Assembly: GCA_036389995.1 (NCBI GenBank)
Contig: DASWCR010000228.1
Span: 1-39,422, forward strand
Direction: 5' to 3'
DNA: 39,422 nt
DNA from: Candidatus Limnocylindria bacterium
Lineage (GTDB): Bacteria; Chloroflexota; Limnocylindria; P2-11E
Both the position numbers and the translations under genes were made by a program. Numbering within the stretch: position 1 is the first letter of the stretch; each line of letters opens with the position of its first letter. The notes below the pieces were generated by a model, which saw only the letters and a list, made by a program, of their open reading frames with translations, made no database searches and had not been told where the DNA came from. Shown here in pieces: positions 2,171-38,339 of the stretch.

Positions 2171-2754
2171 TGGCGACGCGAAAAGTCCGTCGGAAGACCA
2201 CACCAAGACCCGCTAGCGCGGGGCCGAGCAAGCCCGCGCGGAGAGGGCATCCTCTCGTTGACCAGCTCCGATTCACCCGCAGCGAGTGGTTGCGCGGGCT
2301 CAAAGGAGTGAGCGAGGCCGCCGGGGCGCGGCATTTCGGGCAGATGAACTCGATCGGTTGGATCGTCGGCCACCTCGCGTGGCAGGAGCAGCGCTATCTC
2401 CTGCACCGTCCCCAGGGGATCATGCTGCGCGAGGACATCCAGCGAGACTTCGCGTCGGGCGGCCCGATGAGCACCCCGTCGCTCGCCGAGATGCGGATGG
2501 CCTGGCGGAAGATCACGAAGGCCACCGATCCGTTCCTCGACCAGCTCACGACGCCGAAGCTCCTTGTCGATCTGCCGTTGAACGGAAAAAAGAGCGGCCA
2601 GACGCAAGGGTCCGCCATCCGCCGGCTGACGTACCACTACTGGTTCCACATCGGCGAGATCCTGGCGATCCGGCAGCAACTGGGGGAGAAAGGCCTCCCG
2701 GAGTACGTCGGGAGCATCGAGGCGAAAGCGCCGTACCGGCCGGAGCGAGACTAA
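2167..2754 (+). CDS. DinB superfamily (DinB_2-like) metal-dependent protein
   Basis: 195 aa. IGWIVGHLAWQEQRYL and LTYHYWFHIGEILAIRQQLG match the His-containing helices of the DinB four-helix-bundle family. ATGA overlap with the HIT gene. Confidence 0.75.
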   Translation: MMATRKVRRKTTPRPASAGPSKPARRGHPLVDQLRFTRSEWLRGLKGVSEAAGARHFGQMNSIGWIVGHLAWQEQRYLLHRPQGIMLREDIQRDFASGGPMSTPSLAEMRMAWRKITKATDPFLDQLTTPKLLVDLPLNGKKSGQTQGSAIRRLTYHYWFHIGEILAIRQQLGEKGLPEYVGSIEAKAPYRPERD

Positions 2755-4193
2755 CGCGCTCCACGTAGGCTGACCGGCGGGACGTAGTCTCCGACGAGCT
2801 CGCGATGCCACCACGCGCCGGTCTCGCGGTGTTCGTTCGGCGTCGTGAACCGGTACAGGTAGAGGAGCGCGCGGACGAACCGCGGCGGCTGGCCGTCGAA
2901 AGGGTCGCGTCGGAGGAGGCGGAGCGTCGGACGATCCGACTCGAGCAGCTTCGCGAGGAATGGGACGAACCATTCGTGGTACATCGGTGAGGACATCGCC
3001 GCGAACCACATGAGCCAGTCGAGGCGCAGGTGGTACGGCGCGAACTGCGGCGGACGGCGCTTGATGTCTCCGGGCTTTCCCTTGAACTCGTACTCGCGCC
3101 ACACCGTCTGCGGCGTGAGGACCGGCTCGGCGGTCCCCTCGATCACGACCTCGAATCGCTCCTTCGTGACCGAGCCGAACGCGCCGTATGTCCCGACGAT
3201 GTGGAAGGGATCGAAGCTCGCGTTCATGATCTGCCGGCGCGAGAGCAGGTTGCGTGCGGGCCGGTAGCTGAGGAACACGATGAGCGCGGTCACCGCGAGC
3301 ACCGTCCAGAGAGACCAGCCCGGCGTCTCCTGGGGCCCGTACGGCGCGAGCGGGAAGACGCGACTCAGCGCGGCGCTGTCGAACGCCGAGATCGCGAGCG
3401 CGATCGTGAGGAAGTTCAGCCAGGCGAAGTTTCCGGAGATCACGAGCCAGGACTGGGTGCCGACGATGATGATCCCGGCCACCGTTGCGATCGGCTGGGG
3501 GAAGAAGAGGAACCACGGCACGACCAGCTGAGCGAAGTGATTGCCGAGGACCTCGAACCGATGCAACCGTTTGGGCAGGTGATGGAAGTACCAGCTGAGC
3601 GGGTTTGGCATCGGCTGGGTCTCGTGGTGGTAGTAGAGGCACGTGAGGTCGCGCCAGCACCGGTCGCCGCGCATCTTGATCAGGCCCGCGCCGAACTCCA
3701 CGCGGAAGAGAAGCCACCGCATCAGCACGATGAGGCTGAACTGCGGAGCGGTGGTCGCGCCGCCGAGGAAGATCGTGAGGAAACCGGTCTCGAGGAGGAG
3801 CGACTCCCACCCGAACGAATAGAAGGTCTGGCCGATGTTCACGATCGAGAGGTAGAAGACCCACAGCAGCGCGAACACGAGCATCGACGCGAACGGGATC
3901 GGGTAGTTCGGCCCATCCAGCCAGCCCGTGACCGCGACGACCGACAGAACGACGCCAGCCCAGGCGACGGTCATGAGCTTTCGGTCCGAATACCCGATGA
4001 GATGAAAGAGCGTCGGTGAGGCGCGGAAGGGGACCGCCCGGATGAACTCGGGTGCCGGGAGCAGGCCGCGCTCGCCGAGCAGCGGCCGGAACTGGTTGAT
4101 GGTCACGAGGAACGCGACGAAGTAGATGACGCCGAGCACACGCTCGAAGACGAATCGCGTGAGCCAGTAGTCGGGTGCGGCGAGCCAATCCAT
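2751..4193 (-). CDS. lipase maturation factor (LMF1-like) family polytopic membrane protein
   Basis: 480 aa. N-terminus MDWLAAPDYWLTRFVFERVLGVIYFVAFLVTINQFRPLLGERGLLP is typical of bacterial LMF-family proteins. Many TM segments and GC3-rich codons. Confidence 0.8.
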   Translation of the reverse strand: MDWLAAPDYWLTRFVFERVLGVIYFVAFLVTINQFRPLLGERGLLPAPEFIRAVPFRASPTLFHLIGYSDRKLMTVAWAGVVLSVVAVTGWLDGPNYPIPFASMLVFALLWVFYLSIVNIGQTFYSFGWESLLLETGFLTIFLGGATTAPQFSLIVLMRWLLFRVEFGAGLIKMRGDRCWRDLTCLYYHHETQPMPNPLSWYFHHLPKRLHRFEVLGNHFAQLVVPWFLFFPQPIATVAGIIIVGTQSWLVISGNFAWLNFLTIALAISAFDSAALSRVFPLAPYGPQETPGWSLWTVLAVTALIVFLSYRPARNLLSRRQIMNASFDPFHIVGTYGAFGSVTKERFEVVIEGTAEPVLTPQTVWREYEFKGKPGDIKRRPPQFAPYHLRLDWLMWFAAMSSPMYHEWFVPFLAKLLESDRPTLRLLRRDPFDGQPPRFVRALLYLYRFTTPNEHRETGAWWHRELVGDYVPPVSLRGAR

Positions 4194-6013: not shown

Positions 6014-6892
6014 ATGAATCTGAGTCTTATCGGTCTCGGCATCCTCATCGTCATTTTGATCCTCGCGCTCCGGGCGATCATTCACATCGTACCGGAGTAC
6101 CAGCGTCTCATCGTCTTCCGGCTCGGAAGCTTTGAGAAAACGGCTGGCCCCGGCATCGTGCTGCTACTCCCGCCGCCGATCCAAAGCGTTGCCCAGACCG
6201 TCGATCTCCGGGAATTCGTGGTGGAGATCCCACAGCAGACCTGCATCACGAAAGACAACGCGCCGATTTCGATCGACTTCCTGATCTACCAGAAGGTCGT
6301 CGAGCCGAAGGACTCGTTCCTGAACATCCAGAACTTCCGTCAGGCCATCCAGGGCATCGCGACGACCACGCTCCGCGCCGTCGTCGGGAACATTCCGCTT
6401 GACGACGTGCTGGCTAAGCGCGAGCAGATCAACGAGGAGCTCCGGGTGAAGCTCGACGACATCACCCACCGCTGGGGCGTGAAGGTCACGAACGTCGAGA
6501 TCAAGGAGCTCACGCCGCCGCGCGACGTGCAGGAGGCGATGAACCGCCAGCTCACCGCGGAGCGGACCCGGCGCGCCGTGGTCACCGAGGCCGAGGGCAA
6601 GAAGGCCTCTCAGATTCTCGTCGCCGACGGCGCGAAGCAGGCCGCGATCCTCGAGGCCGAAGGCGCCCGGCAGTCCGCGATCCTGCGGGCCGAGGGTTTC
6701 GCCTTGGCGATCTCGACGATCAATGCGCAGGCGATGACCGCGGACGCCAAGACGATGACGCTTCAGTACTTCGACGCGCTGAAGCAGCTCGGTGCGTCAC
6801 CTTCGACGAAGTTCATCATCCCGACCGAGTTCACGAACCTCGCTGCGCCGATCAGCGCGCTCGTGGCAGCCCGCGACGGCGAGAAGAAATAG
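6014..6892 (+). CDS. SPFH/Band 7 (stomatin-like, slipin) family protein
   Basis: 292 aa. N-terminal TM, then IVPEYQRLIVFRLGSF...GPGIVLLLPPPIQSV..VDLRE...TKDNAPISIDFLIYQKV, plus a coiled-coil Ala/Glu-rich tail. Start abuts the nfeD stop (TAAATG). Confidence 0.9.
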   Translation: MNLSLIGLGILIVILILALRAIIHIVPEYQRLIVFRLGSFEKTAGPGIVLLLPPPIQSVAQTVDLREFVVEIPQQTCITKDNAPISIDFLIYQKVVEPKDSFLNIQNFRQAIQGIATTTLRAVVGNIPLDDVLAKREQINEELRVKLDDITHRWGVKVTNVEIKELTPPRDVQEAMNRQLTAERTRRAVVTEAEGKKASQILVADGAKQAAILEAEGARQSAILRAEGFALAISTINAQAMTADAKTMTLQYFDALKQLGASPSTKFIIPTEFTNLAAPISALVAARDGEKK

Positions 6893-6915
6893 CCGCCCTC
6901 TAGCCGGGTCGAGTT

Positions 6916-6973
6916 GCGCGGAAGAAGCGGCGCCACGCTCGGCCAGAACGCGTGGCTGCCGCCTCTTCCGCGC
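6916..6973 (+). terminator. long GC-rich hairpin downstream of the nfeD-SPFH operon (terminator-like, no U-tract)
   Basis: Hand-paired: 6916-6938 pairs with 6950-6973 (22 of 23 positions paired, one bulged T at 6957), loop 6939-6949. Begins 24 nt after the SPFH stop codon. No T-run follows. Confidence 0.5.
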
Positions 6974-7158
6974 GGACGCGTACGGCCATCGGCCGCACCC
7001 GTGGACGCGCGGCGAAGGGTGAGTAGACGCGAGGCGGCACCCGCCATGACGCGGATGCCGCCTCGACGTCCTGTGGTGATGGGGAGGGGAACTCCCCGGG
7101 ACGGAAGGACAGGAGAAGCGCAGAAGCAGCTGCCACGGTGCACCCCTAGAAACTGGTT

Positions 7159-7174
7159 TCGAACAGGCGTTCGC
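7159..7174. promoter_or_regulatory. LexA (SOS/Cheo-type) box 1: tcGAACaggcGTTCgc
   Basis: Perfect GAAC(7161-7164)-N4-GTTC(7169-7172) palindrome with flanking TC/G, matching the Gram-positive/actinobacterial LexA consensus (T)CGAAC-N4-GTTCG(A). About 80 nt upstream of the ligase-like CDS. Confidence 0.6.
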
Positions 7175-7178
7175 ATGA

Positions 7179-7194
7179 TAGAACGTACGTTCGC
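7179..7194. promoter_or_regulatory. LexA (SOS/Cheo-type) box 2: taGAACgtacGTTCgc
   Basis: Perfect GAAC(7181-7184)-N4-GTTC(7189-7192). Its centre lies exactly 20 bp from the centre of box 1, about 60 nt upstream of the ligase-like CDS. Confidence 0.6.
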
Positions 7195-7248
7195 CATGTC
7201 AAGAGCGGGGATACTCGAGTCCTGAGCGCCGCCCTCGGGGCAGACCTC

Positions 7249-7818
7249 TTGCCCCAACGACCTCGATCAGTCCGCGAACGAGCGGAGCGAGAGGGCCACA
7301 TCCTCGAGCCGGCGTGGACGGGCACGCGCGTGCTTGTGCGCGTCGGCCATCCCGAACCGCATTTCCTCGGCTATGAGGGCAGGGTGGACGGGCCGCGCGA
7401 GCTGTACGACGCGATCGTCGCGGAGACGAGGTGCGAGACCGCCATCCTCGACGGCGTCCTCGTAGCCGACTGGAAGGACGAGAGCGACCTCGAGGTCGAC
7501 GATCATGGCAACGCGTATACGCGGCAATTCGGAGGTCGTCAGATCTTCGCCGCGTTCGACTTACTCGAGATCGACGGCGAGTCACTCCTCCGAGTCCCGC
7601 TCCTGGAGCGCCGGCGTCACCTCGAGGGCGTTCTCGCGCCAAGCCCGAACGTCCGACTCACGCCTTTTGTCACGCGCGGCCTGCGGGCGTGGCGCGACAC
7701 ACTTCAGGCGCAGGGCTTTCGCCGCGTTGTGCTCAAGAATTGGAACAGCACGTACACGCCGGGCAAGACGACCGATGATTGGCTCGTGATCGAAAAATTG
7801 AAGGCAGCTACTCCATGA
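7249..7818 (+). CDS. ATP-dependent DNA ligase-like nucleotidyltransferase-domain protein with degenerate active-site motifs (no OB domain)
   Basis: 189 aa, TTG start. It aligns by eye to LigD/LigC adenylation-domain blocks. EPAWTGTRVLV matches motif I (canonical EPKWDGxR). ILDGVLV follows. FAAFDLLEIDGESLLRVPLLERRRHLEGVL matches motif III and the PL-x-ERR block. FRRVVLKNWNSTYTPGKTTDDWLVIEKLK matches motifs IV/V (canonical EGVVAK..S.Y.PG.RS..WLKVK). Confidence 0.7.
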   Translation: MPQRPRSVRERAEREGHILEPAWTGTRVLVRVGHPEPHFLGYEGRVDGPRELYDAIVAETRCETAILDGVLVADWKDESDLEVDDHGNAYTRQFGGRQIFAAFDLLEIDGESLLRVPLLERRRHLEGVLAPSPNVRLTPFVTRGLRAWRDTLQAQGFRRVVLKNWNSTYTPGKTTDDWLVIEKLKAATP

Positions 7819-7834: not shown

Positions 7835-9109
7835 GTGAAGGCTAATGCGGCGGTGATCGACCACACCCAGCGCGATCCGTGGGAGGTCGCGCTCGAGCAG
7901 TTCAGCATCGCGGCGGACAGGCTCCATCTCGATCCGAACATGCGGCGCATCCTCAGCACCACGCAGCGCGAGCTCACCGTGCACTTCCCCGTGCGGATGG
8001 CCGACGGAGTCGTCCAGGTCTTCACGGGCTACCGCATCCAGCACAACACCACTCGCGGTCCCGGGAAGGGCGGCATCCGTTACCACCCGTCGGTGTCGTT
8101 GAACGAGGTCAAGGCGCTCGCGATGTGGATGACGTGGAAATGCGCCGTCGTCGGCATCCCCTACGGCGGCGCGAAGGGCGGCGTCGTCTGCGATCCAAAA
8201 GGCATGAGCGCGCAGCAGCTCGAGACGCTCACCCGCCGCTACACGACCGAGATCGAGCTCCTCATCGGTCCGGACCGCGACATTCCTGCTCCCGACGTGA
8301 ACACGAACGCCCAGACGATGGCCTGGATCATGGACACGTACTCGATGCATCATGGCTATACGGCCCTGGCCGTCGTGACCGGGAAGCCGCTCTCCATCGG
8401 CGGAAGCGAAGGCCGCAACGAAGCGACGGCGCGCGGTGCCGTCTACACGATCATCGAGGCCGCCAAGCACCTGAACATGGATCTCGAGGGCGCGCGCGTG
8501 GTGGTCCAGGGGTTCGGCAACGCAGGCAGCTTCTCGGCGAAGCTCATGGCTGAGCTCGGCGCCGTGATCGTCGGTCTCTCGGACACGAGTGGGGCGATCG
8601 CGAACCCGAAGGGTCTCGACCCGAATCGCGTCGACGCGTACAAGAGAGAGACGGGCTCGGTGACCGGGTTTACCGGGGCGGAGCGGATCTCGAACGCCCA
8701 GCTCCTCGAGCTCGACTGCGACATCCTCATTCCGGCCGCGATCGAGAACCAGATCGGCGAGCACAACGCGCCGCGGATCAAGGCGAAGGTCATCGCCGAG
8801 GCCGCGAACGGGCCGACGAGCCCCGAAGCTGACCGCATCCTTTTCGACAAGGGTGTCTTCCTCATCCCCGACATCCTCTGCAATGCCGGCGGCGTGACCG
8901 TGAGCTACTTCGAGTGGGTGCAGGATCTGCAAAACCTCTTCTGGCGCGAGGCCACGATCAACGCGCGCCTCAAAGAGGTGATGGTGAAGTCCTTCAATGA
9001 CGTTTTGGAGACCTCGAAGAAGCACAAGGTCGACATGCGAACCGCGGCGTACATGGTCGCGGTCGGACGCGTCGCCGAGGCGACGCTTACGCGAGGGATA
9101 TACCCCTGA
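7835..9109 (+). CDS. gdhA: NAD(P)-dependent glutamate dehydrogenase
   Basis: 424 aa. GPGKGGIRYHPSVSLNEVKALAMWMTWKCAVVGIPYGGAKGGV is the Glu/Leu/Phe/Val dehydrogenase active-site block. Rossmann motif VVVQGFGNAGS. GGAGG RBS upstream of the GTG start. Confidence 0.95.
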   Translation: MKANAAVIDHTQRDPWEVALEQFSIAADRLHLDPNMRRILSTTQRELTVHFPVRMADGVVQVFTGYRIQHNTTRGPGKGGIRYHPSVSLNEVKALAMWMTWKCAVVGIPYGGAKGGVVCDPKGMSAQQLETLTRRYTTEIELLIGPDRDIPAPDVNTNAQTMAWIMDTYSMHHGYTALAVVTGKPLSIGGSEGRNEATARGAVYTIIEAAKHLNMDLEGARVVVQGFGNAGSFSAKLMAELGAVIVGLSDTSGAIANPKGLDPNRVDAYKRETGSVTGFTGAERISNAQLLELDCDILIPAAIENQIGEHNAPRIKAKVIAEAANGPTSPEADRILFDKGVFLIPDILCNAGGVTVSYFEWVQDLQNLFWREATINARLKEVMVKSFNDVLETSKKHKVDMRTAAYMVAVGRVAEATLTRGIYP

Positions 9110-9113
9110 TCGT

Positions 9114-10247
9114 CTAGCGGAACGAGATCGGCGCGGCGAGCAGCGAGCCGGACATCGGAAGCGGCGCGGTGCGGCCGGTCGCAAGGTCGACCGCCATCGC
9201 GTTCGCTCCGCCGTCGAACGCGACGAAGGCGAGCGCTCCGTCGGAGCTAACGAGAAGGTCGCTTGCGGTCGGTAACCCTCGCGCGACGACCCGGCGAGCG
9301 CCCCCTGCCTTGGGCCAGATCTCGAGACGGTCCGCGACCAGAACGACGATCTCATCGGTGCCGGGCTTCCAGTGTGCGAACCCGATGCGCTCGCCCGACG
9401 GCGCTCCGAATTCGCGATGGTCGTTGTATGACGCGAGGGTCCAGACGCGGAGGACGCTCCCGTTCAGCACGCCGAGCACGTCGTTGCCGCTCGCGCGGAT
9501 CGTTATGGCGGGGATGCCCGCCTCCATCGGGACCCGCGAGCTCAACGCGTCCTCTCCGACCACGACCCACGCGATCCCCGTGGCATCCGGCCCCCCGTAA
9601 ACGCACGCGCCGACAAGACGCGTGACACGATCCCATCCGACCGGCCAGTACTGGCTCCCGTCGGTGAGTCGGGAGATCTCGTGGATCGATCGCGTCGGGG
9701 TGTCCACAACGCGAAGCGCCGAGAACGGCCCCGGCGCCTCCCCGGTCCCGGCTCGTCCGCTCGATTCCACGACCGCGACAATGCCGGTCCGATCAGACGA
9801 CCAGACCGCGGCCGCGCCGCGTTCGGTGTCGAGGACGGTCGCGAGAGTCGTGTCCTGGTCCGGCGCGGTGACGTCGAACACCCGCAGCTCGCTCGCGGCC
9901 CCATCGGCCGTCCTCGATACCCAGTAGGCGACGCGCCTGCCCGTTCCCGACACCGCCCCGACGAAGCCCTGACCGCGTAGCGAGCCGATCGGAGCGGCAT
10001 CGGTCTCGCGGCGAAGGTCGGCGGCCGCGGCTTTTCCCGGCAGCGCGACGAACCCGCGCGAATCCGAAAGGAGGGGGCCAGCGGGAGTCGCCGGGGCCGT
10101 GACGGTGGGGAGCGGTAGGGGCGTGGGAGTCGGTGCCGATTCTCCGCGCAGGGCGACCGAACCGCCCGCGAGGACAGCGAGCAGGACGATCAGGAGGAGG
10201 ACGGTGCCGATCCAAAACAAGACCGGGTGGGCGTCTTTGCCACGCAC
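9114..10247 (-). CDS. membrane-anchored hypothetical protein, probably a TolB/PD40-like beta-propeller
   Basis: 377 aa. N-terminal TM (VLFWIGTVLLLIVLLAVLAGG), a Pro/Thr linker, then repeated strand-like units (GRRVAYWVSRTADGAASELRVFDV..., DRTGIVAVVES..., GTDEIVVLVADRLEIW..., SSDGALAFVAFDGG...). The fold assignment is inference. Confidence 0.5.
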   Translation of the reverse strand: MRGKDAHPVLFWIGTVLLLIVLLAVLAGGSVALRGESAPTPTPLPLPTVTAPATPAGPLLSDSRGFVALPGKAAAADLRRETDAAPIGSLRGQGFVGAVSGTGRRVAYWVSRTADGAASELRVFDVTAPDQDTTLATVLDTERGAAAVWSSDRTGIVAVVESSGRAGTGEAPGPFSALRVVDTPTRSIHEISRLTDGSQYWPVGWDRVTRLVGACVYGGPDATGIAWVVVGEDALSSRVPMEAGIPAITIRASGNDVLGVLNGSVLRVWTLASYNDHREFGAPSGERIGFAHWKPGTDEIVVLVADRLEIWPKAGGARRVVARGLPTASDLLVSSDGALAFVAFDGGANAMAVDLATGRTAPLPMSGSLLAAPISFR

Positions 10248-10353
10248 TAACCACCGCTCGCCCGCACGGTCGGTGCCAGCGGCTAAAGTTGCGCTCGCGC
10301 GCCCAAGCGGCGCGACGAGTTACCGCCCCACCAGGCGGCTAGATCGGCGAGCC

Positions 10354-13098
10354 GTGGACCGTATCCTGGTCGCGGTCGACCTCGAGACAACGGGCTACGA
10401 GGCGGAGAGCGACGAGATCATCGAGATCGGCGCGATCCGCTTGACCGTGTCTCCGGAAGGCGCGGTGACGCTTGGCGAGCGGTTTCTGACGTTCGCGGAT
10501 CCGGGTCGCCCGCTGACACCGCCGATCGTGCGACTCACGGGCATTCAGGACGAGGATTTGCTTGGCGCTCCGTCGTCGTCCGAGGCGGTCGCTTTATTCG
10601 TGGCGTTCGCGTTCCGTGACGGCCCGCCCTGTTTCGTGGGCCACAACGTGGGTTTCGACGTCTCCTTCTTGGAGCGCGCCGGGATGAGCACCGGGTCGGA
10701 GATGCTCGACACCGCTGAGCTCGCGTCGATCCTGTTGCCGTCCGCGTCGAGCTACGCATTGCAGCGGCTGGCAGCCGACGCCGCGATCAGCCCCGAAGCC
10801 GCGCACCGCGCACTCGATGACGCGATCACGTCCGCGCTCGTCCTCGGCCATCTCGCGCGCGTCGCCCGCGAGCTACCCGCCGACATTCTTGGCGAGATCG
10901 CCGCCTTGACTGACCTCATCGGTCCGAGCACCGCGGAGTTCTTCCGCGACGCGGCGGGCTCGGCGACCCGCGATGCTTGGACCGACGGCGGCGAGCACCG
11001 CGGGGGTCTTCCTCGCTCGGCCCCTCGTGGGATCGCGATGTTCGGCTCGCTAGGGGCCGCTCGCTCGGAAGACCCCCACGTTGCTCGCGAATCACCGATC
11101 TCCGTCGAGTCCGTGTTCGCGCCGGACGGTCCGCTCGCGCGCTCGGTGATCGGATATGAGGATCGTCCCCAGCAGCGCGAGCTCGCTGCCGCCATCGAGC
11201 GGACATTCGCGGATGGCGGCGCGCTCGTGGCCGAGGCTGGCACGGGCGTCGGCAAGTCGATGGCGTATGCGGTCCCGGCTCTCGCATCGGCTCAGATTGG
11301 AGAACGCGTAATCATCTCAACGCACACGCTCCCGCTGCAGGACCAGCTCGTGCGGAAGGATCTCCCCGCGCTGCAAACCGCGCTGGGCACCGACGTCGCG
11401 GTCGCCGTGCTTAAAGGCAGATCGAACTATCTCTGCCCACGCAGATGGCAGATCCTGCGCGGGTCGGTCACGACCCGCGAAGAGGCGCGTCTCGTCTGCA
11501 AGACGCTCGTCTGGCGCACAGCGACGGACAGCGGCGATCGCGCCGAGCTGAACCTCATGAGAGGAGAGGGCGAGCTCTGGTCGCGAATCTCGGCGAACGA
11601 CGAATCGTGCGATCAGCGGCGCTGCAAGCGGACGCCCGGCGTGAACTGCTACCTGCAGCAGGCACGCGAGGCAGCGGCTGACGCCGGCATCGTCGTGGTG
11701 AACCACGCGCTTCTTCTCCAGGACGCGCGGATGCGCGGCGCCCTCCTTCCGCAGGCCGAGCACGTTGTCATCGATGAGGCGCACCGGCTCGAAGATGTAG
11801 CGACCGATGCCTTCGGGCTCGAGCTCTACGAGCCGCGCTTCCGTCGCGATCTGCAGCGCGTCGCGCATTCCCCGGCGGTCACCTCGGCGCTGCGAGATCC
11901 TGCGCGCGCGGAGCCCGCTGAGCGCATCCGCACCGAGATCGAGCGCGCGGTTGAACGCACGACCGAAGTGTTCGATGCGCTCGGCGCGCTCCTGGTGCCG
12001 GCGGACGGCCCGCCCGAGGAGCGCATGCGGATCACCGCGGGCCTGCGCGCGAGTGACGAGCGCTGGCTCCCCGTCGAGCTCGCCGGCGAGCGGCTCGCGG
12101 ACGCGATCGCCGGGGTCGCGTTCGCGGCGGAACGGATCCGGAACCTCGGCGGAGACGAAGACGAGCTCGCCGAGCTCGAGGCGGCGATGGGTGAGCTGGC
12201 CGGCGCACGCGCGGCGATCACGCGCGGGCTGCACGATCCCCGTTTGAGCGACATCGTGTGGCTCGAACGCGACAACGACGGCGCCCTCGCGCTGCACGTC
12301 GCGCAGACCCACCTCGGTCGGGTGATCCGAACGACGATCGTGAACACGCATCGCGCGGTCGTGTTCACGTCGGCGACCCTGGCGGTCGCGGGCTCATTCG
12401 ACTTCGCTCTCGATCGCTTCGGCATCGCGGACGTCGCCGAGCCGCTCGCGGTCGGCTCGCCCTTCGACCACCAGCGGCAGGCACTCCTTGTGCTGCCGAC
12501 CGACATCGTGCTTCCGGGCGAGGAACGATTCATCGAGGAGGCGGCCCGGCTCATCGAAGATGTGGCGCGGGCGCTCGATGGACGAACGCTCGTGCTCTTC
12601 ACGTCACACGCGAGCCTGCGCGACGCGGCCGCGCGCCTCGGTGCGCTCGAAACCGAGGGCCTCGCCGTACTGACCCAGGGCATCGACGGATCGCGCCGCG
12701 CGCTCCTCGAGCGCTTCGCCCAGGGCCGCGCGGTGCTCCTCGGTACGCAATCGTTCTGGGAGGGCGTCGATCTGCCCGGCGACGTCCTGCGATGCGTCGT
12801 GATCGCCCGGCTCCCCTTCAGCGTGCCCGACGATCCGCTCGTCCAGGGGCGCGCCGAGCGCTATGACGACCCTTTCGTACAGTTCCAGCTGCCGCAGGCG
12901 GCACTGCGGCTGCGCCAGGGCTTCGGCCGGCTGATCCGCACCAAGACCGACTACGGCGCCGTCGTGCTCCTCGACCGCCGTGTCGTGACGAGGGACTACG
13001 GCGAGGTGCTGCTCGGCTCGCTGCCCGATGCGCGCACCGAGCATTTGCCACTCGACGGCGTAGCCGCCCGCGTGTCGGCGTGGTGTGACCGTGGATGA
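10354..13098 (+). CDS. dinG: DinG-family ATP-dependent DNA helicase fused to an N-terminal DnaQ/epsilon-like 3'-5' exonuclease domain
   Basis: Track ORF 10099..13098; start moved to GTG 10354 to clear the divergent gene. Exo motifs: VAVDLETTG, GHNVGFDVSFL, HRALDDA. Helicase motifs: AEAGTGVGKS (Walker A), VIDEAHRLED (DEAH). Cys cluster: NYLCPRR ... SCDQRRCKRTPGVNCY. C-terminal block: SFWEGVDLPG. Confidence 0.9.
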   Translation: MDRILVAVDLETTGYEAESDEIIEIGAIRLTVSPEGAVTLGERFLTFADPGRPLTPPIVRLTGIQDEDLLGAPSSSEAVALFVAFAFRDGPPCFVGHNVGFDVSFLERAGMSTGSEMLDTAELASILLPSASSYALQRLAADAAISPEAAHRALDDAITSALVLGHLARVARELPADILGEIAALTDLIGPSTAEFFRDAAGSATRDAWTDGGEHRGGLPRSAPRGIAMFGSLGAARSEDPHVARESPISVESVFAPDGPLARSVIGYEDRPQQRELAAAIERTFADGGALVAEAGTGVGKSMAYAVPALASAQIGERVIISTHTLPLQDQLVRKDLPALQTALGTDVAVAVLKGRSNYLCPRRWQILRGSVTTREEARLVCKTLVWRTATDSGDRAELNLMRGEGELWSRISANDESCDQRRCKRTPGVNCYLQQAREAAADAGIVVVNHALLLQDARMRGALLPQAEHVVIDEAHRLEDVATDAFGLELYEPRFRRDLQRVAHSPAVTSALRDPARAEPAERIRTEIERAVERTTEVFDALGALLVPADGPPEERMRITAGLRASDERWLPVELAGERLADAIAGVAFAAERIRNLGGDEDELAELEAAMGELAGARAAITRGLHDPRLSDIVWLERDNDGALALHVAQTHLGRVIRTTIVNTHRAVVFTSATLAVAGSFDFALDRFGIADVAEPLAVGSPFDHQRQALLVLPTDIVLPGEERFIEEAARLIEDVARALDGRTLVLFTSHASLRDAAARLGALETEGLAVLTQGIDGSRRALLERFAQGRAVLLGTQSFWEGVDLPGDVLRCVVIARLPFSVPDDPLVQGRAERYDDPFVQFQLPQAALRLRQGFGRLIRTKTDYGAVVLLDRRVVTRDYGEVLLGSLPDARTEHLPLDGVAARVSAWCDRG

Positions 13099-13635: not shown

Positions 13636-13815
13636 CAGACGAGTCGCCGCTCGCGTGAAGTACCAACGATCAGCGGCGGATCGCGAGGTACGTCCGTACT
13701 GGCCGTAACGGGAAATCAGCCGCACAACGCTGCGCAACCGGACGTGACAGACCCGAACAAGCGAGCGTTAGGTGTTTAGGCGCCGCTAAACGACGGGCGT
13801 GCGCGGGAGGAAATC

Positions 13816-15041: not shown

Positions 15042-15152
15042 CCCCGTACCCGCGTACTAGTTCCGCTGCTGTAGGTCAGGGGCCAACCCTGCGGAGGTTC
15101 CTATTCCCAGAACGGGTGATCCGCGGGAACGTTAGCCATGGATGAACAACGT

Positions 15153-15173
15153 TTCTGTGTGGAGAACACAGAA
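15153..15173. promoter_or_regulatory. inverted repeat TTCTGTGT-N5-ACACAGAA upstream of paralog B (candidate operator)
   Basis: Perfect 8-bp arms (15153-15160 / 15166-15173), about 27 nt upstream of ATG 15200, in a visibly lower-GC spacer. The regulatory role is inferred. Confidence 0.3.
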
Positions 15174-15199: not shown

Positions 15200-15631
15200 A
15201 TGTTCAACAAGGCGCTCGCATCGATCCTTGCACTCTTCTTCATGGCATCCCTCGTCCTCGTCTCTGCGAGCGTGTCCGCTGACGCAAAGGGCCATAAGGC
15301 CAACAGCAGCGTCACCGGCAGCGGCTTTACCCTCGTCGTGCTCAACTCGACGGACGGTCTCCCGCATTGGGGTGGCCAGGTGACGTTTACCGTCTCGACG
15401 ACTGCGACAACCGAGCCGCACGTGAGCCTCAAGTGCTCGCAGAACGGGGTCCTGGTCTACGCGACCCAGACCGGCTTCTACGCTGGCTATCTGTGGCCGT
15501 GGACGCAGGTCATGACCCTCACATCGGTCGCATGGACCGGTGGGTCGGCCGACTGCGTCGCGACCCTCTACTACTTCAGCGGCGCAGACGTTGTCTCGGT
15601 CGGAACGCTGAGCTTCACCGCGCAGCCATAG
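15200..15631 (+). CDS. small secreted protein of unknown family, paralog B (143 aa precursor)
   Basis: ATG with an AAGGAGG RBS. Signal peptide MFNKALASILALFFMASLVLVSASVSA. The mature region is collinear with paralog A. Confidence 0.75.
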   Translation: MFNKALASILALFFMASLVLVSASVSADAKGHKANSSVTGSGFTLVVLNSTDGLPHWGGQVTFTVSTTATTEPHVSLKCSQNGVLVYATQTGFYAGYLWPWTQVMTLTSVAWTGGSADCVATLYYFSGADVVSVGTLSFTAQP

Positions 15632-31546: not shown

Positions 31547-31774
31547 TCAGCTCGGGAGCTTCAGCTCCATTCCGGGCTGGATCAGGTCGGGGTTATCGCC
31601 GATGACGTCCTTGTTCAGGTCGTAGATCTCGCGCCAGCGATTCGCGTCACCCAGCTCCTGCTTCGCGATCGCGGAGAGGTTGTCGCCGCTATCGACCGTG
31701 TACGTCTTTGGCTTGGTCTCCGTCGCGCCCGGGTCCTTGGGGTACTCGCGATGGCTCTCGTTACTCTCTGGCAT
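31547..31774 (-). CDS. small LysM-domain protein (75 aa, no signal peptide)
   Basis: Start moved to the ATG at complement 31772-31774 (AGGAGG RBS). YTVDSGDNLSAIAKQELGDANRWREIYDLNKDVIGDNPDLIQPGMELKLP is a canonical LysM. Confidence 0.75.
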   Translation of the reverse strand: MPESNESHREYPKDPGATETKPKTYTVDSGDNLSAIAKQELGDANRWREIYDLNKDVIGDNPDLIQPGMELKLPS

Positions 31775-31823
31775 TGTTGGCCTCCTGTTTTGAATCAAGT
31801 AACAGCAGGCCGGGTGCCAAGCC

Positions 31824-35580: not shown

Positions 35581-37299
35581 ATGAGACAGTCGAAGCTCTT
35601 TGGCCGCACCCTACGCGAAGCGCCCGCGGAAGCTCAGACGCCCGGGCACCGCCTCATGCTGCGCGCCGCGATCGCGAAGCCACTCGCTGCGGGGCTGTAC
35701 ACATGGCTGCCCCTCGGCTTCCGCGTCGCGAAGAAGGTCGAGCAGATCATCCGCGAAGAGCAGGACCGGATCGGCGCCCAGGAGATGGAGATGCCGGTCC
35801 TGACACCGGCCGACCCATGGAAGCAGACCGGCCGGTGGGAAATGCTCGAGCCGATCACCTTCCGCACGACCGACCACAACGGCCGTGAGTTCATGGTGAG
35901 CTACACGCACGAAGAGTTCGTGCATCTCCACGCGATGCAGGAGATCCAGAGCTACAGGCAGATGCCGCAGATCGTCTACCACTTCCAGTCGAAGGGACGC
36001 GACGAGGCGCGGCCGCGCGCGGGCTTGCTTCGCGTGCGCGAGTTCGTCATGAAGGACGCGTACAGCTTCGATGTCGACCAGGCCGGCCTCGAGAAGAGCT
36101 ACGCCGCCGAGTACGGGGCTTACGAGCGAACGTTCAAGCGGATGGGGCTCGATGCGATCAGCGTCGAGTCCGATACAGGCGCCATGGGCGGTGACGTCGC
36201 GCACGAATTCCAGGTGCTCACTGAGGTAGGGGAGGACCGCATCGCTATCTGCGCGAACTGCGATTACCGCGCGAACCTGGAAAAGGCGACCCGTCACATG
36301 GAAGGCCAGCGAGCGCGGGCCGACGTCGTCCCGGCTCCGACTCAGATCGCGACGCCTGGTACGGAGAGCATCGAGGCGCTCGAGGCCTCGCTGAATCAGC
36401 CCAAACACGCCTTCCTGAAGACGCTCTTGTTCCGCGATCAATCAGGCAAGGTCGTCGCGGTCGTGCTGCCGGGCGACCGTGACGTCAACGAGGCGAAGCT
36501 TCGCAAGACTCTCGCGACCGGCGAGGTCAAGTTCGCGAGCGATGCCGATTTCGCGGCCGCTGGAGCGGTCCGAGGCTACATCGGCCCGGTCGGCCTCAAA
36601 GCGCGAGTCCTCGTGGACACCGGCGTGGGCGGCGGCGGGTATACCGCGGGCGCGAACAAGAAGGACGCGCATCTCCGCGATGTCGTCCTCGGCCGCGACT
36701 TCCAGGGCGAGCGTGTCGATGCCTCGGACGTGCGTGAGGGCGACGTCTGCCCCAAATGCAAAGTCGGAAGGCTCACGATCAAGCGCGGGGTTGAGGTGGG
36801 AAACATCTTCGCCTACGGCACGTATTACTCGGACAAAATGAACGCCACTTTCGTCGATGAGGATGGCACGCGCAGGCCGTTCTTCGGCGGCAGCTATGGC
36901 ATCGGAGTCGGTAGAGCGGTCCAGACGATCATCGAGACACACCATGACGACAAGGGAATCATCTGGCCGCCCCAGGTCGCGCCCTTCGACGTGCATGTAT
37001 TGGCTCTGCCGGTGAACGACGATGCGGTACGCGCGGCGGCCGAGAAGCTTGTCGCCGATCTCGAGAGCCGCGGCCTAGACGTGCTCTACGACGACCGCAA
37101 CGAGAGCGCAGGAGTGAAGCTCGCCGATTCGGACTTGATCGGAATTCCGATCAGAGCGACCGTGAGTAAGCGCAATCTCGCCGAAGACAAAATCGAGATA
37201 AAGCAGCGCCACGTGGCCGAGCCGCTGATGGTGAAGTCACTCGAAGCCGTCTCGTGTATCGAGACGTTCGACGCCGAGAAACTCAAATGGCGAGGGTGA
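35581..37299 (+). CDS. proS: proline--tRNA ligase (bacterial type with editing insertion)
   Basis: [30 protein letters not shown]..., [11 protein letters not shown] (motif 2 region), GSYGIGVGR (motif 3). ATG 35581 is preferred over GTG 35578. Confidence 0.95.
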
Positions 37300-38339
37300 C
37301 CAAGGCGCGTGAAGCCGCACCGACGGCCTTGCCCGGCGAGGAGCGCTCGCTCGAGGCCTCGCTGCGGCCACAGCGCCTCTCCGACGATGAATACATCAAC
37401 CAGGACAAGGTCAAAGGGCAGCTTCGCATCATCATCGAAGCCGCGAAAGCACGCCGCGAGACCCTCGAGCACATCGCCCTTTACGGTCCCCCGGGAGTGG
37501 GGAAGACCTCACTGGCGAATGTGATCGCGCACGAGCTCGGCGTGCCGATAAAGATCACGAGCGGCCCGGCCATAGAACGCGCGGGCGATCTCGCGGCGAT
37601 CCTCACGAATCTCGAGAACGGCGCCGTGCTGTTCATCGACGAGGTGCACCGCCTCCCGCGGGTGGTCGAGGAAGTCCTCTATCCAGCGATGGAAGAGTTC
37701 CATCTCGACATCATCCTTGGGAAGGGCCCGGGCGCGCGCACACTGCGGCTGCCATTGCCGCGCTTCACGCTCGTCGGTGCGACGACGCGCATCGGCCGTC
37801 TCTCCGCGCCGCTTCGCGATCGGTTCGGGGCGATCTACCACCTCGATCTTTTCAAACCCGAAGCACTGGAGCGGGTCGTGCGCCGATCCGCGCGCATCCT
37901 CAAGGTCGAGATCGACTCCGCGGCAGCGCATGAGATCGCCCTGCGCGCGCGAGGAACACCGCGGATCGCGAACCGCTGGCTGAAACGGGTGCGCGACTAC
38001 GCCCAGGTGCGCCACGACGGCAACGTCACCCTGCCTGTCGCGCGTGAAGCGCTCGCCGCACTCGAGGTGGACGATGCGGGCCTCGATGACCGCGACCGCA
38101 GTCTCCTCCGGGCGATCACGGACAAGTTCGGCGGCGGTCCGGTCGGGCTCGAGACACTCGCTGCCGCCGTGAGCGAGGACGCCGAGACGATCGAGGACGT
38201 GTACGAGCCGTACCTCCTGCAGGAGGGGTACCTCAAGCGCACCCCCCGCGGCCGCGTCGCGACGGAACGCACCTACCGGCACCTCGGCGTGGACGTGCCG
38301 AAGAACGGCACGCTCTGGGACGGGCATCAAGGGGAGTGA
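37287..38339 (+). CDS. ruvB: Holliday junction branch migration DNA helicase RuvB
   Basis: Start at ATG 37287, overlapping the proS 3' end by 13 nt. [17 protein letters not shown] (Walker A), LFIDEVHRL (Walker B), [44 protein letters not shown]. Confidence 0.95.

Follow-up and report, generated by a model that had tools for sequence, protein, structure and literature searches.

Results

The DNA analysed here (the window) comprises positions 1 to 39,422 of contig DASWCR010000228.1, assembly GCA_036389995.1, from a Candidatus Limnocylindria bacterium (Chloroflexota). Its element of interest is a pair of palindromic boxes of the form GAAC-N4-GTTC, lying between an unannotated small gene on the minus strand (6900–7136) and a plus-strand gene (7222–7818) for a degenerate homologue of ATP-dependent DNA ligases, below called the pseudo-ligase; on the plus strand follow the genes of glutamate dehydrogenase (GDH; gdh, 7835–9109) and of a DinG-like exonuclease-helicase (10099–13098). 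Box 1 is GAACAGGCGTTC at 7161–7172, in extended form tcGAACaggcGTTCgc at 7159–7174; box 2 is GAACGTACGTTC at 7181–7192, in extended form taGAACgtacGTTCgc at 7179–7194; both match exactly, and the extended forms are separated by atga. The original prediction, made from the letters of the window, had given these sequences and coordinates, a distance of 20 bp between the box centres, a position 55–90 nt upstream of the TTG at 7249, and no further intergenic box, upstream of dinG included; all of this was confirmed, boxes 1 and 2 being the only exact matches in the 39.4 kb. The boxes were also said to lie in a 356-bp intergenic region (6893–7248); they do lie inside it, but most of this region is occupied by the conserved small gene.

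Two or more exact matches anywhere in the window were obtained in 12 of 100 shuffles, so their number alone is not rare; two matches at most 40 bp apart are rare (3 of 3000 dinucleotide-preserving shuffles; rate of exact boxes in shuffles, 0.69 per 39.4 kb). Sites with one mismatch were not enriched in the window (13 observed, 17.5 expected), and none was located before dinG.

Hundreds of close homologues of the gene at 7249–7818 were found in soil metagenomes, and those with a name belong to the class Candidatus Limnocylindria of the Chloroflexota. Scanning one genome per species gave 80 orthologous loci (L001–L080) from metagenome-assembled genomes (MAGs) of this class; one locus was cut at a contig end, leaving 79 evaluable loci, or 80 sequences together with the window. 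The pseudo-ligases of the 80 orthologous loci are 64–99% identical to that of the window, and the conservation of the boxes therefore spans real divergence. At least one exact box was present at the same position upstream of the pseudo-ligase gene in 79 of 79 loci, and two boxes in 64 of them (65 of the 80 sequences), with a spacing of 20 bp (45 sequences), 21 bp (4) or 22 bp (16). Box 2 was retained in every one of the 80 sequences, box 1 in 65.

The 145 operator sites thus collected have invariant arms and four central bases that vary, though not freely: the first is a purine in 143 sites and the fourth a pyrimidine in 144. Fixed arms with variable spacers are the pattern expected of a site read by a protein. 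The consensus of box 1 is T-C/A-GAAC-R-G-R-C-GTTC-G-C, its flanks being kept as T-C before and G-C after the arms (TCGAAC...GTTCG); these features of flank and spacer were absent from the search pattern and yet match the LexA consensus CGAACRNRYGTTYC, which points to a selected protein-binding site of LexA type. The motif is reportedly the LexA site of Dehalococcoides ethenogenes, a member of the Chloroflexi. It is the LexA motif in Firmicutes and Actinobacteria (PMC3323433). The site overlaps core promoter elements, fits the CGAACRNRYGTTYC palindrome and is conserved in the orthologous promoters; these findings support the view of the boxes as an operator of Gram-positive LexA type that is under selection and positioned for transcriptional repression, the identity of the binding protein being read from the motif. 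The motif type given in the original prediction is upheld by the class-wide conservation and by the purine-to-pyrimidine rule of the spacer.

A position matrix built from the 145 sites scored these sites at 15.7–25.2 bits. Outside the operator, exact boxes were found five times in the 1.155 Mb of sequence flanking L001–L080, the shuffle rate of the window predicting about 20; off-operator GAAC-N4-GTTC is approximately fourfold rarer than composition predicts, which could reflect selection against stray repressor sites.

Five of the loci (L004, L005, L049, L063 and L071) stand in contigs labelled Candidatus Udaeobacter, Bathyarchaeia archaeon, Acidiferrales or Saccharimonadales; they show the syntenic Limnocylindria locus with 67–93% identity of the pseudo-ligase, and the off-phylum labels are most likely due to contamination in MAG binning.

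A consensus scan of 6700–7400 gave a sole sigma-70-like promoter, located on the minus strand before the small gene: TTGACA-16-TATCAT, 11 of 12 matches, 0.1 expected; −35 TTGACA at 7197–7202 (TGTCAA on the plus strand), −10 TATCAT at 7175–7180, predicted transcription start near 7168. Box 2 fills the spacer of this promoter and abuts its −10 element; with a start near 7168, box 2 would cover approximately −24 to −13 and box 1 approximately −4 to +8. The arrangement is the same in all relatives: the TTGACA hexamer is invariant in the 80 sequences, the −10 element has the form TAnnnT in 78, and a spacer of 16–18 bp with box 2 inside it and the −10 element abutting box 2 was found in 80 of 80. 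When the 80 regions were aligned on box 2, an AT-rich hexamer stood immediately before it, and TGTCAAG (plus-strand reading) followed after 4 nt (74 sequences), 5 nt (1) or 6 nt (5). One-box lineages retain the box in the spacer (related locus L161: TTGACA-acgt-GAACAGACGTTC-TATCGT, then 9 nt and ATG). Between the last box and the matched start of the pseudo-ligase gene lie 68 to 269 nt, depending on the locus; in view of this range, the fixed register with the leftward promoter ties the operator first to that promoter. A Shine-Dalgarno-like AGGGGTG (minus strand, 7141–7147) precedes the small-gene GTG by 4 nt, and GGGGAG-type sequences occupy this place in two-box relatives.

The likeness of TGTCAAG...TAnnnT to the actinobacterial PafBC (RecA-independent) promoter motif was considered and rejected: its parts are 17–211 nt apart across the loci, and TGTCAA is more readily accounted for as the −35 hexamer of the minus-strand promoter (TTGACA).

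The small gene starts with GTG at 7136 and has 78 codons and a TAG stop at 6902–6900; its product in the window is MAAASALLLSFRPGEFPSPSPQDVEAASASWRVPPRVYSPFAARPRVRPMAVRVRAEEAAATRSGRAWRRFFRATRPG. A profile detected it in 77 of the 80 genome loci and in the window, always divergent from the pseudo-ligase gene and adjacent to it; one of the three loci without a profile match shows the gene by eye, and the two others lack upstream sequence. The products (64–93 residues) share MA(V/I)A at the N-terminus, (W)RxPPRVYSP(F/L/Y) in the centre, the motif RRxxRPMA(V/I) and a C-terminus of basic character. In the columns of the PPRVYSP and RPMA motifs codon positions 1 and 2 are near-invariant and position 3 varies (0.7–1.6 bits); variation concentrated at the third position indicates selection on the protein, and by this codon pattern the small gene is a real protein-coding gene. 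The protein (isoelectric point 12; approximately 19% Ala, 18% Arg and 14% Pro) has no hydrophobic run longer than 8 residues and is therefore not membrane-anchored; it is predicted to be mostly disordered (AlphaFold2 with an 8-sequence alignment, predicted template modelling score 0.20), and no match to it was found in Pfam, NCBIfam or PADLOC. Among 5.8 billion predicted proteins, 7 members of the family were recovered by profile; gene callers nearly always miss the gene.

RNA contigs mapping to 6850–7300 were obtained from 4 of 4 metatranscriptomes (soil and freshwater sediment), each as a single whole contig of 151–196 nt within 6915–7123; 7177–7390 was not covered in any of the 4 runs, and RNA of the pseudo-ligase gene appeared as traces across 7391–7604 in one run, the rest of the gene being uncovered. 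These contigs fit, weakly, a short discrete transcript and a strong promoter that leaks; they give no evidence of repression. The small gene ends 7 nt from the stop of the convergent gene of an SPFH protein. A GC-rich hairpin, GGAAGAGGCGGCAGCCACGC...GCGTGGCGCCGCTTCTTCC (6920–6969), lies inside the 3' part of the small gene, its stem being seen in Rfam alignments; Rfam gave spurious microRNA matches to the hairpin only and no RNA family for the region, and no U-tract terminator was found. The lower ends of the RNA contigs (6915–6944) fall at or within the hairpin, which may be a 3'-end or terminator element for both convergent genes, the small gene and that of the SPFH protein.

The pseudo-ligase gene was delimited mechanically as an open reading frame from TTG 7249 to 7818 (189 aa). 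Its true start is probably CTG 7222, as judged from the alignment: the LGADL residues in frame upstream of TTG 7249 are conserved, the closest relatives (L001–L003) have TCG in the place of this TTG, and other clades have a TTG or GTG start aligned to CTG 7222, 6–9 nt after the −10 motif described below. The protein gave a single Pfam match (PF01068, an adenylation-domain family, 37 bits; no second domain) and fell far below every cut-off of the NCBIfam ligase models. Motif I reads EPAWTGTR, compared with EGKWDGYR in M. tuberculosis LigD (1VS0), the catalytic Lys being replaced by Ala and the Asp by Thr; motif III is DGV, compared with DGE, and motif V is without the KxK lysines. The position of the motif I lysine is occupied by Glu or Ala in 25 of 25 aligned orthologues, and the chain (189–198 aa) stops just after motif V, without an OB domain. 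In a structure model of moderate quality (mean predicted local distance difference test 66), the best Foldseek matches were adenylation domains of ATP-dependent DNA ligases, with probability 1.0 and template modelling scores of only 0.4–0.47. Lacking the catalytic lysine and the OB domain, the protein cannot be a ligase, and on these residues it is predicted to be unable to self-adenylate by the known mechanism. The description of the gene as ligase-like in the original prediction holds for the nucleotidyltransferase domain and not for a ligase proper.

Among solved structures the best sequence match was the ligase domain of LigD (M. tuberculosis Rv0938; PDB 1VS0, 6NHX; E = 5e-6). The nucleotidyltransferase fold was recovered by Foldseek, and motif IIIa (FDLL..DG) and the NSxYxPG region are kept; unlike LigD, the pseudo-ligase has Ala or Glu for the motif I Lys and Thr for its Asp, Val for the motif III Glu, no motif V lysines, and neither OB nor polymerase nor phosphoesterase domain.

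A profile search of 1.84 billion representative proteins placed the Limnocylindria pseudo-ligases in a narrow family (two clusters at 50% identity) and gave a broad related set of adenylation-domain-only homologues of 200–250 residues (P0141–P0211), all with the catalytic lysine replaced and the motif III Glu lost; their motif I is EPxWxGxR, with F, D, H, L, E, Y, W, C or A in the place of the lysine. Metagenome loci of this wider set (80; L081–L160) had boxes in the 21 of Limnocylindria type only, and the small gene was found in the same 21 and in none of the 59 box-less ones; control of lysine-less ligase homologues by such boxes in other lineages was accordingly discarded. Boxes and small gene being confined to the same 21 loci, the module of operator, small gene and pseudo-ligase is class-specific; dead ligase homologues as such are far more widespread than the module. 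The homologues without boxes lie in high-GC contigs (0.67–0.74), many of them just after a gene of a DEAD-box helicase or an epimerase-like protein, and many have a −10 box close to the start codon.

A −10-like GATACT (plus strand, 7211–7216) precedes the pseudo-ligase gene; the −35 region of the putative promoter (approximately 7188–7193) would overlap box 2, and box 1 would lie at approximately −62 to −51. The ATACT motif moves with the start of the gene, standing 41–52 nt before the PQR codons in most loci; (G/A)ATACT follows box 2 after 17–19 nt in 46 of the 80 sequences (the window included), 25–32 nt in 23 and 49–211 nt in 7. Since GATACT is only 6 nt upstream of CTG 7222, a leaderless mRNA with a non-AUG start is suggested. 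The original prediction had taken the gene downstream of the boxes for a tightly repressed member of the SOS regulon: it is a plausible target, its presumed −35 region being overlapped by box 2, but the boxes are physically tied to the minus-strand promoter.

The gdh gene (plus strand; Pfam match) begins 16 nt after the pseudo-ligase gene and is its downstream neighbour in all 79 loci; the two genes overlap in L161, pseudo-ligase stop with gdh start, and are probably co-transcribed. The DinG-like gene (plus strand; Pfam RNase_T and Helicase_C_2) completes the order pseudo-ligase, GDH, DinG in 71 loci, mostly directly after gdh and on the same strand. In the window this order is broken by a minus-strand gene of 377 residues (9114–10247; no Pfam match), which is confined to the closest relatives (18 of the 79 related loci). 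The rightward unit probably consists of the pseudo-ligase gene, gdh and, ancestrally, dinG. The order conserved across the class is NfeD, SPFH (plus strand), the region of operator and small gene, and then pseudo-ligase, GDH and DinG-like, these three likewise on the plus strand.

Discussion

The interpretation preferred here, to which a probability of about 0.75 is given, is that the boxes are LexA-type operators within overlapping back-to-back promoters and keep the small gene and the pseudo-ligase unit repressed until DNA is damaged. The leftward near-consensus promoter TTGACA-16-TATCAT would drive the 78-codon gene of a basic, disordered protein rich in Arg, Pro and Ala, and two repressor dimers, bound 20–22 bp apart on the same helix face, would cover this promoter entirely. 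The rightward, weaker GATACT promoter would drive a probably leaderless mRNA for the dead LigD-type nucleotidyltransferase domain, followed by gdh and ancestrally dinG; with box 2 over its −35 region, the same repressor would limit this unit as well. On DNA damage, self-cleavage of LexA stimulated by RecA would release both units. That LexA is the binding protein and damage the inducing signal is held to be quite probable from the extended consensus, the position in the promoter and the DNA-related neighbours; there is no regulator gene nearby.

Several results weigh against this interpretation. A matrix scan of 1.19 Mb gave one other site of at least 14 bits and no further credible regulon member. 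Homologues of LexA and RecA were found neither in the open reading frames of the window nor in 160–166 related loci (approximately 1.5 Mb), the queries being LexA of E. coli and B. subtilis and RecA of E. coli. The small-gene RNA contigs have a depth of 2–3, are unstranded and come from samples without known stress, and the composition of the small gene is atypical (GC content 0.70 at codon position 2; 0.69–0.79 at position 3, compared with approximately 0.88 in neighbour genes). The rightward promoter, a weak element deduced from the alignment, was not called by the stringent consensus scan, and with ATACT 49–211 nt from the boxes in 7 sequences direct repression of the pseudo-ligase gene is not universal.

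The last two results bear on a narrower explanation, according to which LexA governs the small gene only and the pseudo-ligase gene, gdh and dinG are mere neighbours expressed independently. The boxes are in fixed register with the minus-strand promoter alone, their distance to the −10 motif of the pseudo-ligase gene varies from 17 to 211 nt, and a housekeeping gene, gdh, shares the rightward unit; against this, the 17–19 nt between box 2 and the −10 motif in 46 of 80 sequences, and also in L161, put box 2 over the −35 region, and the adjacent, divergent placement of the two genes in every locus suggests a link in function or regulation. This narrower explanation is regarded as rather unlikely, and still less is expected of a regulator other than LexA, such as a lineage-specific helix-turn-helix repressor, which would leave the locus outside the DNA-damage regulon. 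Binding of LexA is here a prediction from the motif, no other SOS gene with the motif was seen in 1.5 Mb, and RNA of the small gene was present in ordinary soil and sediment; but the consensus is matched beyond the arms, in the R..Y spacer rule and the TCGAAC flanks, the conserved neighbourhood encodes no regulator, and the adjoining genes (ligase homologue, DinG) are DNA-related. GAAC-N4-GTTC is moreover reportedly the LexA site of a Chloroflexi member. In the neighbouring Gram-positive phyla it is well established as the site of LexA (PMC3323433), and together these points make a non-LexA regulator improbable.

That the minus-strand product is a non-coding RNA with an incidental reading frame would agree with the short discrete RNA contigs, the strong internal hairpin at 6920–6969, the composition given above and the near-absence of the frame from gene predictions; it is judged very improbable, since 77 of 80 loci keep the frame open from an aligned start, codon positions 1 and 2 are near-invariant over PPRVYSP and RPMA, a Shine-Dalgarno sequence or a leaderless ATG stands at a suitable distance, and no match to an Rfam family was obtained. 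Functionless chance palindromes, finally, would be compatible with the 12 of 100 shuffles that held two exact matches somewhere in the window, hardly with the 3 of 3000 that held them close together, and are refuted by conservation: all 79 loci, drawn from a whole bacterial class, retain the site while nearby non-coding bases vary.

The preferred interpretation, LexA-type control of both units, was compared with known systems. The operator has the palindrome and the R..Y spacer preference of the Gram-positive LexA operator (Cheo box, CGAACRNRYGTTYC; B. subtilis, M. tuberculosis, Dehalococcoides); box 1 shares its TCGAAC/GTTCG flanks, the sites likewise overlap core promoter elements, and paired sites separated by about two helical turns are a frequent feature of SOS genes under tight repression in such systems. 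It differs in that the role of LexA is here a prediction, the SOS response of Limnocylindria being uncharacterised and neither of the regulated genes being a known SOS gene; a search of the literature for ligase homologues under LexA control, or for an SOS system in Limnocylindria, brought up no report.

Divergent SOS promoters occur at B. subtilis lexA/yneA and M. tuberculosis lexA/Rv2719c, where boxes lie between two units, one of them encoding a small damage-induced protein. The present locus resembles them in having one set of boxes between divergent units, one of which is for a small, poorly conserved protein; it differs in that the small gene is paired with a dead ligase homologue instead of lexA, and in that the promoters overlap so closely that box 2 is shared between the spacer of the leftward and the −35 region of the rightward one. 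Like the genes of the small SOS effectors SulA, YneA, SosA, SidA and DinI, the small gene stands under SOS-type boxes, is lineage-restricted and is easily missed in annotation; unlike these effectors, its product (approximately 50% Ala, Arg and Pro; disordered; isoelectric point 12) has no sequence or domain similarity to them. The transmembrane anchor and/or LysM domain that mark SOS division inhibitors of the YneA, SosA, SidA and ChiZ type are absent from it.

As to function, the best guess, of low confidence, is that the conserved linear motifs of the small disordered protein allow it to act on a partner, which could be the pseudo-ligase or some core machine of the cell; the pseudo-ligase, its catalysis lost, may serve as a factor binding DNA nicks or DNA ends, again with low confidence. 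Tentatively, and with more doubt than belief, the small protein (PPRVYSP, RPMA) and the dead LigD-type domain could form a class-specific two-gene SOS module and act jointly as a new damage-response effector under LexA-controlled divergent promoters, for example as a sensor of DNA ends or nicks together with a small peptide that targets a core machine (for instance ribosome, RecA, replisome or division apparatus), either inhibiting or adapting it.

The switch itself, LexA within a promoter, is textbook; what is found here is a canonical SOS operator with new candidate regulon members in an unstudied lineage. For Candidatus Limnocylindria, a class of Chloroflexota that is abundant in soil and fresh water and is uncultured, the operator gives the DNA-damage regulon its first anchor, and a very well conserved one; it also exposes a protein-coding gene that annotation has missed almost everywhere and that occurs in essentially every genome of the class. 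The gene routinely labelled LigD or ATP-dependent DNA ligase encodes a pseudo-enzyme, which affects the end-joining capacity inferred for these organisms. If both products do act in the damage response, they would be new effectors.

Further features of the window

The rest of the window is housekeeping in character (rpsB, pyrH, frr, uppS, cdsA, dxr, rseP, ispG, proS, ruvB). Looking up the exact proteins of its terminal genes extended the sequence by about 1 kb at the right end; for the protein at the left end there was no record. The coding region of ruvB (37254–38339) overlaps the preceding proS and has no LexA-type box. At 31547–31798, at the end of an oligopeptide-transporter operon and without a box, a protein of 75–83 residues with a weak LysM match is encoded; the LysM domain also occurs in the B. 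subtilis SOS division inhibitor YneA.

Two boxes with one mismatch each, GAACGGGTGATC and GAACAACGTTTC, 34 bp apart at 15110–15155, lie 45–90 nt upstream of an open reading frame starting at 15200 that has a good ribosome-binding site (AAGGAGG), in a stretch of lower GC content (13–16 kb) with small genes without Pfam matches; the corresponding region of L161 holds a Flp-pilin gene. One-mismatch sites near 13810 and at 15110/15144 were considered as regulon members and rejected, consensus flanks being absent; the pair at 15110–15155 is probably due to chance.

A protein of the DinB_2/mycothiol-S-transferase-like superfamily, which despite its name is not a DNA polymerase, is encoded at 2167–2754 without a box; its gene is adjoined by that of a lipase-maturation-factor-like membrane protein (2751–4193, minus strand).

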